Assembly: GCA_013288305.1 (NCBI GenBank)
Contig: JABDCD010000001.1
Span: 4,923 to 68,922, forward strand
From: Alphaproteobacteria bacterium
GTDB taxonomy: Bacteria; Pseudomonadota; Alphaproteobacteria; Rickettsiales; SXRF01
Reading direction: 5' to 3'
Length of the DNA: 64,000 nucleotides
Under the pieces are notes generated by a model, which did not search any database, was not told where the DNA came from, and saw only the letters and a list, made by a program, of their open reading frames with translations. A program made the translations under genes and the position numbers. Shown in pieces: positions 18,994-44,013 of this stretch. Within the stretch, counting starts at the first letter, position 1, and each line of letters starts with the position of its first letter.

Positions 18994-19076
18994 AATCCTG
19001 CGGCGCGTGAAACGCGAGCGCAGGATCTCAGCGATGATGCAAGATCCTGTGCCTCGCCTGCGGCTCGCACAGGATT
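18994..19076. repeat. bipartite ATCCTG hairpin repeat, upstream of clpB
   Basis: aatcctgcggcgcgtgaaacgcgagcgcaggatc + gatcctgtgcctcgcctgcggctcgcacaggatt. Confidence 0.85.
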
Positions 19077-19084
19077 GATACAAT

Positions 19085-21682
19085 ATGGACTTCGAAAAAT
19101 ACACGGATAAATCGAAGCAGCTCATCCAGGCGGCGCAGGCGCTGGCACTGCGGATGAACCACCAGCGCTTTATGCCCGAGCACCTGCTGTCGGCGCTGAT
19201 GGAAGACCGCGAGCATCTGGCCGAAAAGCTGATTCGCGCCTGCGGCGGCGATGCCGGGACGGTGGCCGCCCGCGCCGAGGACGCGGTCAATGCCATCCCC
19301 AAAGTCGAAGGCAGCGGCGCCGGGCAATTATACGTATCGCCCGAAATCGCCCGCCTGTTCGATACGGCCGAGCAACTGGCGAAAAAAGCCGGGGACGAAT
19401 TCATCACCGCCGAACGCTTGCTCCAGGCGCTTTCGCTGGGCAAAGGCACGCCGCCTGCCAAAATCCTCGCCGATGCCGGAGTGACGCCGCAAAAGCTTGA
19501 GCGCGCCGTCAATGACATGCGCAAAGGCCGCACCGCCGCTTCCGCCGGCGCCGAAGACCAGTTCGAGGCGCTCAAAAAATACACCAAGGATTTCACCGAG
19601 CTGGCCAGAGCGGGAAAGCTCGATCCGGTCATCGGCCGCGACGAGGAAATCCGCCGCACCATGCAGGTGCTGTCGCGCCGCACCAAAAACAATCCCGTAT
19701 TAATCGGCGAGCCGGGCGTCGGCAAAACCGCCATTGTCGAGGGGCTGGCCGCCCGCATCGTCGCCGGCGACGTGCCGGAGACGTTGAAAGACAAGCGCCT
19801 GCTCTCGCTCGACCTGGGCGCGCTGGTAGCCGGCGCGAAATTCCGCGGCGAGTTCGAGGAGCGCCTCAAAGCCGTCCTCGCCGAAATGTCGCATTCCGAG
19901 GGCGACATTATTTTATTCATCGACGAGTTGCACACGCTGGTCGGCGCCGGCCGCGCCGAAGGCTCGATGGACGCCTCGAACCTGTTGAAACCGGCGCTTT
20001 CCCGCGGCGAACTCCATTGCGTCGGCGCCACCACGCTCGACGAATACCGCAAATATATCGAAAAAGATGCAGCCCTCGCCCGTCGCTTCCAGGCCGTATT
20101 CGTCAGCGAACCGAGTGTGGAGGATACCGTCTCCATCCTGCGCGGCCTCAAGGAAAAATATGAACTCCATCACGGCATCCGCATCACCGACGCTGCCATC
20201 GTCGCCGCGGCCACGCTGTCGCACCGCTATATCAGCGACCGCTTTTTGCCCGACAAGGCCATCGATTTGATCGACGAAGCAGCGGCACGGCTGCGCATGG
20301 AAGTCGATTCCAAACCGGAGGAATTGGATGAGATCGACCGCAAAATCATTCAGCTCAAAATCGAGCGCGAGGCGCTCAAAAAAGAAAGCGACAAAGCATC
20401 GAAAGACCGGCTGGAAAAACTGGAAAAGGAATTGCGCGATCTGGAAAAAGAAAGCGCCGATATGACGCGGCGCTGGCAATCGGAAAAATCGCAGCTTACC
20501 TCGGTGCAGAAACTCAAGGAGCAGCTTGAGGAAGCCCAGAGGAACCGCGACATCGCGCAGCGCAAGGGGGACCTGACCAAAGCCGGGGAAATCGTCTACA
20601 GCATCATCCCCAAATTGCAGGAACAGCTCAAAGAAGCGGAAAAACTCACGCAGAACGCCATGATGAAAGAAGCGGTGACGAGCGAGGACATCGCCGAAAT
20701 CGTCTCGCGCTGGACGGGAATTCCGGTCGAGAAAATGCTCGAAGGCGAACGCGAAAAACTGCTCAACATGGAAATTGCCCTGCGCGCCCGCGTCGTCGGG
20801 CAAGACGAAGCGCTGGTCGCCGTCAGCAATGCCGTGCGCCGCGCCCGCGCCGGGCTGGGCGATCCGGGCCGCCCCATCGGCTCGTTTTTATTCTTAGGTC
20901 CCACCGGCGTCGGCAAAACCGAACTGTGCAAGGCACTGGCCGAATTTATTTTCGACGACGAATCGGCGCTGCTTCGCATCGACATGTCGGAATATATGGA
21001 AAAACACGCCGTGGCGCGGCTGGTCGGCGCGCCGCCGGGCTATGTCGGCTACGAAGAAGGCGGCTCGCTTACCGAGGCCGTCCGCCGCCGCCCGTATCAG
21101 GTCATCCTCTTCGACGAGGTCGAAAAAGCGCATAACGACGTCTTCAATATTTTACTGCAGGTGCTCGACGATGGCCGCCTGACGGACGGGCAGGGGCGCA
21201 CCGTCGATTTCCGCAACACCATCATCGTGCTGACTTCCAATCTCGGCTCGGAATATCTGGCCGAAGTCAAGGAAGGCGAAATCACCGGCCCGGTGCGCGA
21301 CCACGTCATGCACGCCGTGCGCAAACATTTCCGCCCGGAATTTTTAAACCGCCTCGACGAAATCATTATCTTCTCGCGCCTGGCCAAGGAGCACATGGCC
21401 GGCATCGTCGATATACAAATCGCCCGCCTCGCCCGTCGCCTCGCCGATCGCCACATCACCCTTACGCTCGACGATAAAGCCCGCAACTGGCTGGCCGAAA
21501 CCGGCTACGACCCGGTCTACGGCGCCCGCCCGCTCAAGCGCGTCATCCAGCGCGAATTGCAGGACAAGCTGGCGCAGGAGATGCTGGCCGGAACCATCGG
21601 CGACGGCGCCAATCTCAAAATTTCCGCAGGGGAGGGTGGGCTGATCGTTACGCCGCAGAAGGCCAAGGCGAAGGTGGCGTAA
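19085..21682 (+). CDS. clpB: ATP-dependent chaperone ClpB
   Basis: Two AAA+ modules (GEPGVGKTA; GPTGVGKTE), a long middle coiled coil, and a Clp N-domain. 865 aa. Confidence 0.97.
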
Positions 21683-21688
21683 TTTTTT

Positions 21689-21785
21689 CTTGTCATCCTC
21701 GGGCCTGACCCGAGGATCCATCCAAAAAATTTACCGCGCTCATGGAGTTTTGATGGATGGTCGGGTCAGGCCCGACCATGACAAA
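21689..21785. repeat. CTTGTCA-hairpin inverted pair (family L), after clpB
   Basis: cttgtcatcctcgggcctgacccgaggatccatcc ... ggatggtcgggtcaggcccgaccatgacaaa. Confidence 0.85.
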
Positions 21786-21789
21786 TGGA

Positions 21790-42847: not shown

Positions 42848-42853
42848 GAAGAC

Positions 42854-42919
42854 GTACCCGGTACACGGTACTCGGTACCCGGTGAAGATTTTGAGTACCG
42901 TGTACTGAGTACCATGTAC
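42854..42919. repeat. tandem-heptamer-arm hairpin, family I (GGTACNC), rpsK|rpoA
   Basis: gtacccggtacacggtactcggtacccggtg / aagattttga / gtaccgtgtactgagtaccatgtac. Confidence 0.88.
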
Positions 42920-42940
42920 GACTTAATTTTAGGAGCAAAC

Positions 42941-43948
42941 ATGTTAGCAAAAAACTGGCAAGACCTGATCAAACCGTCGAAGCTCGATATCGCGGCTTCC
43001 AAAAGCAACCCGCGCCAGGCGACGATTGTGGCCGAGCCGCTGGAGCGTGGCTTCGGCCATACGCTGGGCGTGGCGCTGCGCCGCATCTTGCTGTCGTCGC
43101 TGCAGGGCGCGGCCGTGACCTCGGTCAAAATCGAGGGCGTGCTGCATGAATTCTCATCCGTCCCCGGCGTGCGCGAGGACGTCACCGACATCATCCTCAA
43201 CATCAAGGAACTGCGCCTCAAGGCCGGAAGCGGCGACAAAAAGCGCATCACGCTCACCGCCAGCGGCCCCGGCGAAGTCAAGGCCGGCGCCATCGACGGC
43301 GATGTCGAGATCATCAACAAGGATCACGTCATCTGCACGCTCGACAAGGGCGCCAAGCTTAACATGGAAATGACCGTCGAAACCGGCAAGGGCTACGTCC
43401 GCGCCAGCAAGCAGAGCGACGCCGCCATCGGCCTCATCCCGGTCGATGCGCTGTTCTCGCCCGTGGTCAAGGTATCGTACAAGGTCGACAACGCCCGCGT
43501 CGGCCAGATCACCGACTACGACAAACTGTCGATGACAGTCGAAACCGACGGCTCGATGACGGCCGAGGACGCCGTGGCGCTGGCCGCACGCATCCTGCAG
43601 GATCAGCTGCAGCTCTTCATCAACTTCGAGGAATCGAAGCTGGAGAAAAAAGAAGAAGCCAAGCCCGAGCTGCCCTTCAGCCCGTACCTGCTCAAGAAGG
43701 TCTACGACCTCGACGAGCTTTCCGTGCGCGCTACCAACTGCCTCAAGAACGACAATATCGTCTATGTCGGCGACCTCGTGCAGAAGACCGAAAGCGAAAT
43801 GCTCAAGACGCCCAATTTCGGCCGCAAATCGCTCAACGAAATCAAGGAAAAACTGGCCAAGATCGGCCTCAAGTTCGGCATGGAAGTCACCGGCTGGCCG
43901 CCCGAGAATATTGAGGAGTTGGCGAGGAAGTATGAGGATCCGTATTGA
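42941..43948 (+). CDS. rpoA: DNA-directed RNA polymerase subunit alpha
   Basis: [15 protein letters not shown]...[18 protein letters not shown] lies 6 nt upstream of ATG 42941. The track start 42914 lies inside a repeat arm. Confidence 0.95.
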
Positions 43949-43953
43949 GTATA

Positions 43954-44013
43954 AATCCTGTGAGCCGTAAGGCTGCACAGGATCCTGCGCAATCGCTTGG
44001 CGCTTCGCAGGAT
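43954..44013. repeat. bipartite ATCCTG hairpin repeat, rpoA|rplQ
   Basis: aatcctgtgagccgtaaggctgcacaggatcctgcgcaatcgcttggcgcttcgcaggattt. Confidence 0.9.

Follow-up and report, generated by a model that had tools for sequence, protein, structure and literature searches.

We describe a family of short palindromic repeats, built on the hexamer ATCCTG, that crowds the ribosomal-protein gene cluster carried by a 64,000-nt stretch of DNA (hereafter the window) from an alphaproteobacterium of the Rickettsiales (assembly GCA_013288305.1, contig JABDCD010000001.1). The repeats are probably copies of a non-autonomous palindromic mobile element of the repetitive extragenic palindrome (REP) type, kin to the CGTC-tagged REPs, endemic to a clade of uncultured alphaproteobacteria and multiplied into the ribosomal-protein operons of the window lineage. 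This reading draws on what can be observed directly: the structure of unit and dimer, the dispersal over contigs and species, the presence and absence of copies at orthologous sites, the in-frame insertions, the local enrichment and the lack of terminator features. An earlier sequence-only reading of the window had noticed the repeats and compared them with REP/BIME elements that modulate segmental mRNA stability; its observation is confirmed and its interpretation partly supported, and the clade-wide dispersal, the genic copies in frame, the empty sites in relatives and the fit to the CGTC-tagged REP superfamily go beyond it.

The ATCCTG hexamer occurs 82 times in the window, both strands counted, against 26.6 +/- 5.5 in shuffled sequences, and this surplus is due to hairpins of the form ATCCTGYG-N(12-17)-CRCAGGAT. 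There are 25 such hairpins, mostly in A+B pairs as defined below: 19 have perfect ATCCTGYG...CRCAGGAT boxes and six are one-mismatch or compensated variants. All are confined to positions 18995-44013, and the other ~39 kb of the window hold none, even with two mismatches allowed per box. The unit is an imperfect hairpin of 28-33 nt, made up of an 8-bp outer stem (ATCCTGYG/CRCAGGAT), a 1-nt bulge, a variable inner stem of 4-6 bp and a loop of 3-5 nt; folding is predicted for every unit, with free energies of -12 to -25 kcal/mol. Type A carries a bulged G in the 3' arm and a GNRA or GAA loop, and type B a bulged C in the 5' arm and, mostly, a TTC loop. As the reverse complement of B is an A-type unit, with the same bulge position and a GAA loop, an A+B pair is an inverted REP dimer. 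The usual element is such a pair of inverted units, that is, a head-to-head REP dimer with REPIN/BIME architecture. The spacing between the A and B of a pair ranges from -2 to 28 nt, the units overlapping by two bases at four loci, and the pairs have fold z-scores of -5 to -9. Both DNA strands of the dimer fold alike. The alternative pairings proposed from the sequence alone are correct, one long A:B hairpin being iso-energetic with two separate hairpins, and the two consensus sequences given there are right. No RNA family was found at the hairpins by an Rfam scan of the window at gathering thresholds, which returned only a tRNA-Leu.

Sequence variation in the stems is largely of a kind that keeps them paired. 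Outer pair 1 is A-U in 22 of 24 copies and pair 2 is U-A in all 24, while pair 7 covaries (U-A in 12 copies, C-G in 11); overall, 98.4 % of outer-stem cells are paired. Among 121 distinct perfect-box hairpins from the window and related loci, some 30 different inner arms are found, and at least four inner pairs are kept in 94 % of the hairpins compared with 42 % after shuffling, so that the compensating stem variation noted earlier is real. The outer stem itself has recurrent compensated variants (ATCCCG/CGGGAT, ACCCTG/CAGGGT, ATTCTG/CAGAAT and AACCTG/CAGGTT), and double compensated changes number 16 where 5.0 are expected (maximum 12 in 500 shuffles). Outer boxes whose sequence is kept in genomes ranging from 44 to 65 % GC, with inner stems free to vary, are what a protein contact would give, and the hairpins might accordingly be read as double-stranded DNA binding sites for a host protein, either a nucleoid or gyrase/IHF-type factor as at the E. 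coli BIMEs or a repressor acting at an operator. We hold this to be very improbable: duplex binding has no need of the inner-stem complementarity that is kept, the bulge is conserved, copies lie within genes and no candidate protein was identified.

A gene map was drawn from NCBIfam matches and from tblastn with the proteins of the relative L051. It runs from a DUF3108 gene (minus strand) through clpB and an M23 peptidase gene (minus strand) into the ribosomal-protein cluster, rpsL-rpsG-fusA-tuf-rpsJ-rplCDWB-rpsS-rplV-rpsC-rplP-rpmC-rpsQ-rplNXE-rpsNH-rplFR-rpsE-rpmD-rplO-secY-adk-rpsMK-rpoA-rplQ, which is an alphaproteobacterial layout. Elements stand at 11 of 30 cluster junctions or gene ends between rpsG and rplQ, as well as in the spacer upstream of clpB, as follows.

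18995..19075 (+), REP dimer upstream of clpB: hairpins 18995-19026 and 19044-19075, occupying the 96-nt divergent spacer between the start of the DUF3108 gene (18988, minus strand) and that of clpB (19085).
24709..24838 (+), rpsG/fusA pair: A 24709-24737, 5 nt past the rpsG TAG; long B 24792-24838, 7 nt before the fusA ATG.
26922..27156 (+), fusA/tuf split dimer: A 26922-26953, abutting the fusA TAA; B 27129-27156 (ATACTG variant), 19 nt before the tuf ATG.
28983..29038 (+), rpsJ/rplC abutting dimer: A 28983-29012, B 29011-29038, with AT common to both.
29729..29825 (+), rplC/rplD pair: A 29729-29760 (GTCCTG variant) within the rplC frame; B 29794-29825, directly after the rplC TAG.
31939..32015 (+), rpsS/rplV dimer: rpsS TAG 5 nt upstream, rplV ATG 13 nt downstream.
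32411..32490 (+), dimer in frame in the C-terminal tail of rplV (L22), an orthologous insertion being present in L048 and L079.
35025..35083 (+), rplX/rplE abutting dimer: the rplX stop is the TGA within ATCCTGTGA of hairpin A.
35137..35165 (+), single B-type hairpin in frame in the N-terminus of L5 (rplE 5' end).
36320..36393 (+), rpsN/rpsH dimer.
36818..36872 (+), rpsH/rplF abutting dimer: B is an ATACTG variant.
37429..37519 (+), rplF/rplR dimer: B has the locus-specific inner stem AACTGC/GCAGTT, and orthologous copies are present in L049 and L071.
43955..44013 (+), rpoA/rplQ abutting dimer.

The long B at rpsG/fusA (ATCCCGTG..CACGGGAT) contains an inner TTTTGC..GCAAAA palindrome, and this long-B variant is also found in L006, L007 and L030. 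The 13 loci plus one upstream of clpB counted in the sequence-only reading match this list if the halves of the split fusA/tuf dimer are counted separately, and the coordinates agree over the span 18995-44013. Its placement of the repeats at gene junctions holds for most loci; three lie within open reading frames (ORFs), namely an A in the C-terminal tail of L3 (rplC 3' end), an A+B dimer in the C-terminal tail of L22 (rplV 3' tail) and a B in the N-terminus of L5 (rplE 5' end). Near clpB, a short hairpin ATCCTCGGGCCTGACCCGAGGAT at 21695-21717, 13 nt 3' of the clpB stop, has the ATCCT/AGGAT ends of the family without the boxes and may represent either a degenerate unit or the stem of a clpB terminator.

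The position of the hairpins relative to the genes is regular. Hairpin A begins 0-9 nt past the upstream stop codon, with the exact layout TAG + 5 nt + ATCCTG in five cases, and hairpin B terminates 7-25 nt ahead of the next start codon. The terminal CAGGAT of hairpin B holds an AGGA resembling a Shine-Dalgarno (SD) sequence, which is the sole SD-like motif near the start of clpB, fusA and rplR. Seven of the ten genes with an element directly downstream stop with TAG, and six of the seven orthologues in the element-free L051 stop with TAA or TGA; the element therefore supplies its own stop codon, as also reported for GTAG REPs (PMC3733652). Its 5' flank TAGTATAAATCCTGTGA has stops in two frames, and the third frame reads ..S-I-N-P-V-S... 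The earlier label of REP/BIME-like is right as far as architecture goes, the elements being inverted imperfect palindromes with variable complementary stems located just past stop codons in transcribed DNA. GC-rich stem-loops directly past stop codons could also be taken for intrinsic terminators or attenuators that subdivide the operons. This is extremely unlikely and was rejected on the U-run criterion: no T-run follows the hairpins on their 3' side and a terminator scan flags none of them on the + strand. Several copies, moreover, lie within the reading frames of essential proteins, and ending transcription after every second gene of S10/spc would presumably be lethal.

The family is dispersed well beyond the window. 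We scanned one genome per species, 185,579 in all, with a strict 26-base version of hairpin A and found it at 46 loci, all of them in uncultured alphaproteobacterial metagenome-assembled genomes (MAGs) labelled 'Rickettsiales', 'Alphaproteobacteria' or 'Pseudomonadota bacterium'; among these species genomes, no named Rickettsia gave a match to the strict core. None of the loci comes from the source genome of the window. Identity to the window does not exceed 74 % in any GTDB species genome, and the only record of the exact rplD product is a Logan contig of 2.3 kb. The carriers are about a dozen MAGs with many contigs (19 of UBA998, 9 of REEB114), and the GC content of the loci is 44-65 %. A subfamily pattern recovered 22 further loci in Joint Genome Institute (JGI) metagenomes, and no matches to the element patterns were obtained in viral contigs and plasmids. 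The dimer layout in most MAGs is cGTC-A..(10-20 nt)..B-GACg. The outer flank seen most often in the related MAGs is CGTC/TGTC, with 19 5' flanks and 26 3' flanks among about 130 perfect hairpins, and the tags stand on the outer sides in 12 of 40 dimers and on the inner sides in none of the 40. In UBA998, the second unit is a ATTCCGGG..CCCGGAAT hairpin flanked by further repeats. In copies of this genome drawn from loci L002-L047 (e.g. L004 1326-1470, L016, L017, L024 and L040), the ATCCTG unit is part of a longer mosaic: the left flank ..TCCTCGACTAACAGGTAATAGTAGCCGTC is conserved, a second hairpin ATTCCGGGCACGC..GCGTCCCGGAAT-GACG looks similar to units of the Neisseria dRS3 type, and a further palindrome reads GTCACCCCGCAC..GTGCGGGG.

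Many copies lie within open frames of genes. Among 70 strict copies, 19 have 100 or more codons of open frame on either side, and 34 do so when the limit is lowered to 40 codons. A Pfam match spans the insert in ten cases: class II ribonucleotide reductase, IleRS, LeuRS, AlaRS, a further class I aminoacyl-tRNA synthetase, GlyRS-alpha, TsaD, UvrD, an ABC ATPase and a thiamine pyrophosphate enzyme; additional in-frame cases (PurL-like, E2 linker-like and others) were judged by eye. The intragenic copies are found in both orientations. The insert peptides mostly read ..[HN]P[AV]...QD...DP[AV]Q...SQD.., and some read the first hairpin in another frame. The L22 proteins of the clade usually have a Lys/Ala-rich tail ending in KKESK/N, within which the element lies in the window and in P0005, P0030 and P0096. 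Lys/Ala/Pro-rich extensions are seen in several ribosomal proteins of the clade, namely the L22 C-tail (20-50 residues, ending in KKESK), an L30 N-terminal extension and the S5 C-tail; the window genes, compared with proteins P0001-P0120, are the following.

32029-32514, L22.
38595-38879, L30.
37902-38477, S5.

Within the window, the elements are enriched in the ribosomal-protein cluster, where 12 of 31 gene boundaries carry one, compared with 1 of ~38 elsewhere in the window (Fisher p = 1.4e-4). Their density is 5.2 element loci per 10 kb in the window cluster, 1.6-2.7 in those of L048-L050 and 0 in six relatives. Around seeded copies in carrier MAGs, 427 kb of flanks hold 14 further element loci (0.33 per 10 kb), so that the window cluster has about 16 times the carrier-MAG background density, a background taken from other MAGs and not from the source genome. 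In the 39 kb of E. coli ribosomal clusters examined, junctions are compact and repeat features are absent. The density is unusual, as had been claimed, so far as this can be tested. Among the strict copies found blind in public data, ribosomal clusters hold 2 of the 22 metagenome loci and none of the 46 genome loci, and this low share indicates that enrichment is not a property of the family everywhere. The cluster enrichment is thus real in the window lineage and in two others and is not family-wide.

Comparison with nine related ribosomal-protein clusters reveals filled and empty versions of the same sites. Perfect-box copies are absent from the clusters of five close relatives with the same gene order (L051, L075, L077, L078 and L079), whose junctions are mostly compact. 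L051 keeps the order from clpB to rpoA at 75-93 % protein identity, with zero hairpins and junctions mostly of 1-13 nt, and its empty sites align cleanly with the filled ones of the window; L079 has a decayed L22-tail insertion despite the lack of any perfect-box copy. L076 carries one relaxed-box copy, at rplX/rplE. Three loci are found in L048: the L22 tail, rplX/rplE with the L5 N-terminus, and rpsK/rpoA, the last being empty in the window. L049 and L050 have 2-3 perfect-box loci, or about six by a relaxed search (rpsJ/rplC, rplC/rplD, rpsQ/rplN, rplX/rplE, rplF/rplR and rpmD/rplO), and of these rpmD/rplO and rpsQ/rplN are empty in the window. Lineages and junctions thus differ in whether they carry the element, as mobile DNA would lead one to expect; five clusters without perfect-box copies, and others with 2-6 loci that are partly elsewhere, argue for mobility and for a lineage-specific load. 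Some insertions are orthologous and of long standing. Four lineages have the L5 N-terminal unit (the window, L048, L049/L050 and L076); it survives as a decayed remnant in L077 and is absent from L051, L075 and L078, and the rplF/rplR pair is common to the window, L049 and L071, with a compensated 2-bp swap in B between the window (AACTGC/GCAGTT) and L071 (AATCGC/GCGATT).

Retained copies of this kind bring in the most serious alternative, that the hairpins, whatever their origin, are host-selected cis-acting RNA elements serving as intercistronic stabilisers, processing sites or translational insulators. The regular placement of A after the stop and B before the start would suit such a role, as would the GNRA or GAA loops of A, the AGGA of the hairpin arm as sole SD-like motif at clpB, fusA and rplR, the enrichment in the clusters of three lineages, and orthologous copies kept across lineages with compensatory changes, such as the rplF/rplR swap, ACCCTG/CAGGGT and ATTCTG/CAGAAT within the excess of double changes given above. 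We nonetheless think this alternative unlikely. Perfect-box copies are missing from the operons of five close relatives whose gene order is the same, the occupied junctions vary among lineages, and copies stand in frame, in both orientations, in unrelated housekeeping genes. The two DNA strands fold equally well, so the loops are no proof of an RNA role, and d(GAA) and d(GNRA) loops are stable in DNA as well. Templated correction within a quasi-palindrome can also yield compensatory changes. The orientation of the units was dropped as evidence of an RNA role, the dimer being pseudo-symmetric with both strands folding alike.

Several results weigh against the mobile-element reading. The filled and empty alignments between the window and L051 reveal no consistent target-site duplication; short A-rich matches occur at three sites and are unconvincing at this divergence. 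Individual copies have been retained over long distances: the rplF/rplR B is identical to that of L049 at 31 of 32 positions where four-fold sites are 66 % identical, and the copies common to the window and L048 persist at 44 % four-fold-site identity. Such retention, with the compensatory double changes, points to constraint on individual copies, which pure selfishness would not predict, and leaves room for a host-level function. The window copies lack the CGTC/TGTC tag and have flanks such as ATAA, TTAA and ATCA, of the (T/A)TAA type, and the unit is longer and more composite than those of the published CGTC families (8-9 bp stem, 4-5 nt loop). Finally, the transposase that the sequence-only reading proposed to look for was not found: phmmer with E. 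coli RayT detected no RAYT in the window ORFs and in 0.53 Mb of related loci, and Pfam no transposase among the window genes. ORFs between neighbouring hairpin pairs in L018, L029, L053, L063, L064 and L069 were read by eye, and those of L053, L063 and L069 resemble housekeeping genes with two in-frame inserts rather than transposases.

Taken as a mobile REP-type element, the family would spread as folded single-stranded DNA through an enzyme acting in trans, and copies would survive where they are harmless, either past a stop codon and ahead of the ribosome-binding site that follows, or where they encode part of a disordered protein tail. The design of the element could ease this tolerance, since it supplies a TAG stop itself, is free of stops in one frame (..NPV/A....QD..) and carries an SD-like AGGA at its 3' end. 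In polycistronic mRNA, the copies would form very stable stem-loops without a U-run, most likely hindering 3' exonucleases or serving as substrates of RNases and not acting as terminators. Copies less than 10 nt from stop codons might also disturb translation termination, by analogy with E. coli REPs.

Five ORFs of 53-125 codons lie within the ribosomal-protein operons of the window:

23839-24216, at rpsL/rpsG.
26962-27123, at fusA/tuf.
28375-28656, at tuf/rpsJ.
35723-35986, at rplE/rpsN.
38876-39253, at rpmD/rplO.

These orphan ORFs have a GC content of 36-47 % and a third-position GC content (GC3) of 35-44 %, versus a GC3 of 69-85 % in host genes. None has a Pfam or NCBIfam match, a search with two of them gave no homologue among 5.8 billion proteins, and all five are absent from L051. 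The second of them, of 53 codons, is in the 36 % GC insert enclosed by the halves of the split fusA/tuf dimer. This A-ORF-B arrangement recalls attC-like recombination sites bracketing gene cassettes, the more so as folded attC sites carry an extrahelical base, as the folded units do, and as low-GC orphan ORFs stand at other junctions. Such an origin is scarcely credible, however: the other four orphan ORFs have no flanking hairpins, most dimers have 0-30 nt between their halves, the hairpins contain no GTTRRRY core and no integrase was found in the window.

In the relatives, extra operon genes are found at other junctions; they include an ORF of the 23S_rRNA_IVP/bAvd family (at rplE/rpsN), a second adk, a PAP2 gene and several orphans, unrelated to each other and to the window ORFs:

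L075: 6584-6976, 8603-8857, 9789-10052 and 12679-13350.
L077: 2362-2826 and 7047-7379.
L078: 3589-4035 and 7089-7508.
L076: 16601-17407.

The operons of the clade appear to accept whole-gene insertions. A second palindromic repeat family in the window consists of tandem octamers (GGATGTGG)n, a spacer and (CCACATCC)n, at 2246-2341, 3966-4072 and 42305-42404; one copy is at rpsM/rpsK, one in a CN_hydrolase ORF, where the Pfam match spans ~43 extra residues, and one in the 5' part of a methyltransferase ORF. A third, CTAG-rich family (AGGTTCTAGG..CCTAGAACCT) is found at 34177-34236 and 34633-34692, flanking rplN at the rpsQ/rplN and rplN/rplX junctions. Farther upstream, three tandem units of 54-60 nt with the palindrome ACTTGATATCGCAAATTGCGATATCAAGT lie at 1312-1469, in frame in an ORF6N-domain gene whose Pfam match takes 123 residues for 84 profile positions. 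A Fic/DOC-family gene (8118-9338) in a stretch of 44.5 % GC (8-10 kb), and a gene for a BrnA antitoxin (17614-18181), overlapped by a small ORF on its upstream side and located shortly ahead of the DUF3108 gene, also point to mobile or accessory DNA in the window. A vapB-vapC (PIN) toxin-antitoxin pair (48457-49148) is located between the propionyl-CoA carboxylase subunit genes 46733-48340 and 49163-51154; at the same carboxylase-subunit junction, the MAG GFS_1653 (L007 3126-3222) has a long-B-type ATCCTG dimer in place of vapB-vapC.

A broader proposal, which we put forward tentatively and think less probable than not, is that the ribosomal-protein operons of this clade are a preferred landing site for several selfish DNAs (the REP dimers, the two palindromic families and the low-GC orphan ORFs, which vary from relative to relative), extreme transcription possibly exposing single-stranded DNA. 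The dimer may then have evolved its operon-compatible design, and the host may since select individual copies, as hairpins in the mRNA and also as portions of the L3, L5 and L22 tails.

REP-type repeats read as protein were long deemed a Rickettsia curiosity; here, in-frame copies occur in GC-rich uncultured alphaproteobacteria, even within ribosomal proteins, and with a dimer architecture cleaner than in the Rickettsia elements. The many filled and empty orthologous sites, in genomes diverged to silent-site saturation, make up a natural data set for the mobilisation of CGTC-tagged REPs, which bears equally on whether such hairpins are retained by the host or by their own replication. The hairpin crowding of essential coupled operons is also a natural experiment on the tolerance of structure in polycistronic ribosomal-protein mRNAs.

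Among known repeat systems, the REP/BIME elements of E. coli resemble the ATCCTG family as imperfect palindromes of ~30 nt with a bulge, transcribed, situated past stop codons and alternating in orientation (Y/Z). Their sequence is unrelated, none is annotated in the S10/spc/alpha/str clusters of E. coli, and in-frame coding copies are no feature of E. coli REPs. They reportedly stabilise upstream mRNA and, when less than ~15 nt from a stop codon, are said to disturb translation termination (Newbury 1987; Liang, Rudd and Deutscher 2015). The Correia/NEMIS elements of Neisseria are likewise found within co-transcribed units and form long mRNA hairpins cleavable by RNase III; unlike the ATCCTG units, they are miniature inverted-repeat transposable elements of 100-155 bp with 26-bp terminal inverted repeats, a TA duplication, and promoter and IHF sites.

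In the REPIN/RAYT system (Bertels and Rainey 2011), the replicating unit is two inverted REPs with a short spacer (PMC3116915, PMC3337134). The ATCCTG family has the same dimer architecture, long persistence in lineages and quasi-species-like variation; it differs in the absence of a GTAG tag, in its many intragenic copies and in the lack of a RAYT in the scanned loci. The Rickettsia elements RPE-1, -2 and -3 (Ogata 2000, 2002) are palindromic and inserted in frame in housekeeping genes, at the same site in orthologues, their peptides lying in exposed regions (PMC10969869, PMC3767692). In-frame insertion without loss of frame is shared by the ATCCTG copies in L3, L22 and L5 of the window and in the genes of related MAGs, whereas RPE-1 to -3 are AT-rich elements of 100-150 bp in Rickettsia, and the strict ATCCTG core matched no named Rickettsia genome among the species genomes scanned. 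A GTCAT/ATGAC terminus, typical of RPE-4/6/7 (PMC3767692), is common to the ATCCTG family, although it is only a 5-mer.

The closest of the known systems are the CGTC-tagged REPs of Di Nocera, De Gregorio and Rocco (2013), whose families CGTC-1 to -4 are mostly alphaproteobacterial and include RPE-4/RPE-6 of R. conorii and dRS3 of Neisseria (PMC3733652). These have an unpaired CGTC (or TGTC/CCTC) tag at one end of the palindrome, an 8-9 bp stem starting A-T, T-A and a 4-5 nt loop; they mostly form head-to-head dimers (tags outward, with the possibility of folding into a single hairpin), lie within 20 bp of ORF 3' ends, are sometimes intragenic in frame, encoding 20-30 aa (RPE-4, RPE-6), and have 'apparently no dedicated transposase' (PMC3733652). 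The ATCCTG family departs from them in its outer stem, which encloses 12-17 nt (the bulge, a second stem of 4-6 bp and a loop of 3-5 nt), in the (T/A)TAA flanks that replace CGTC in the window and in the crowding of ribosomal-protein operons, not described in that report (PMC3733652). It shares with them an alphaproteobacterial host, an 8-bp stem starting A-T/T-A, the lack of a known dedicated transposase, a location no more than 20 bp from ORF 3' ends, outer CGTC/GACG tags in related MAGs, head-to-head dimers with the tags outside, and in-frame copies encoding 10-30 aa, including those in aminoacyl-tRNA synthetases. By these described features, as distinct from an alignment of its core to the CGTC-1 to -4 consensus, the ATCCTG family fits among the CGTC-tagged REPs.

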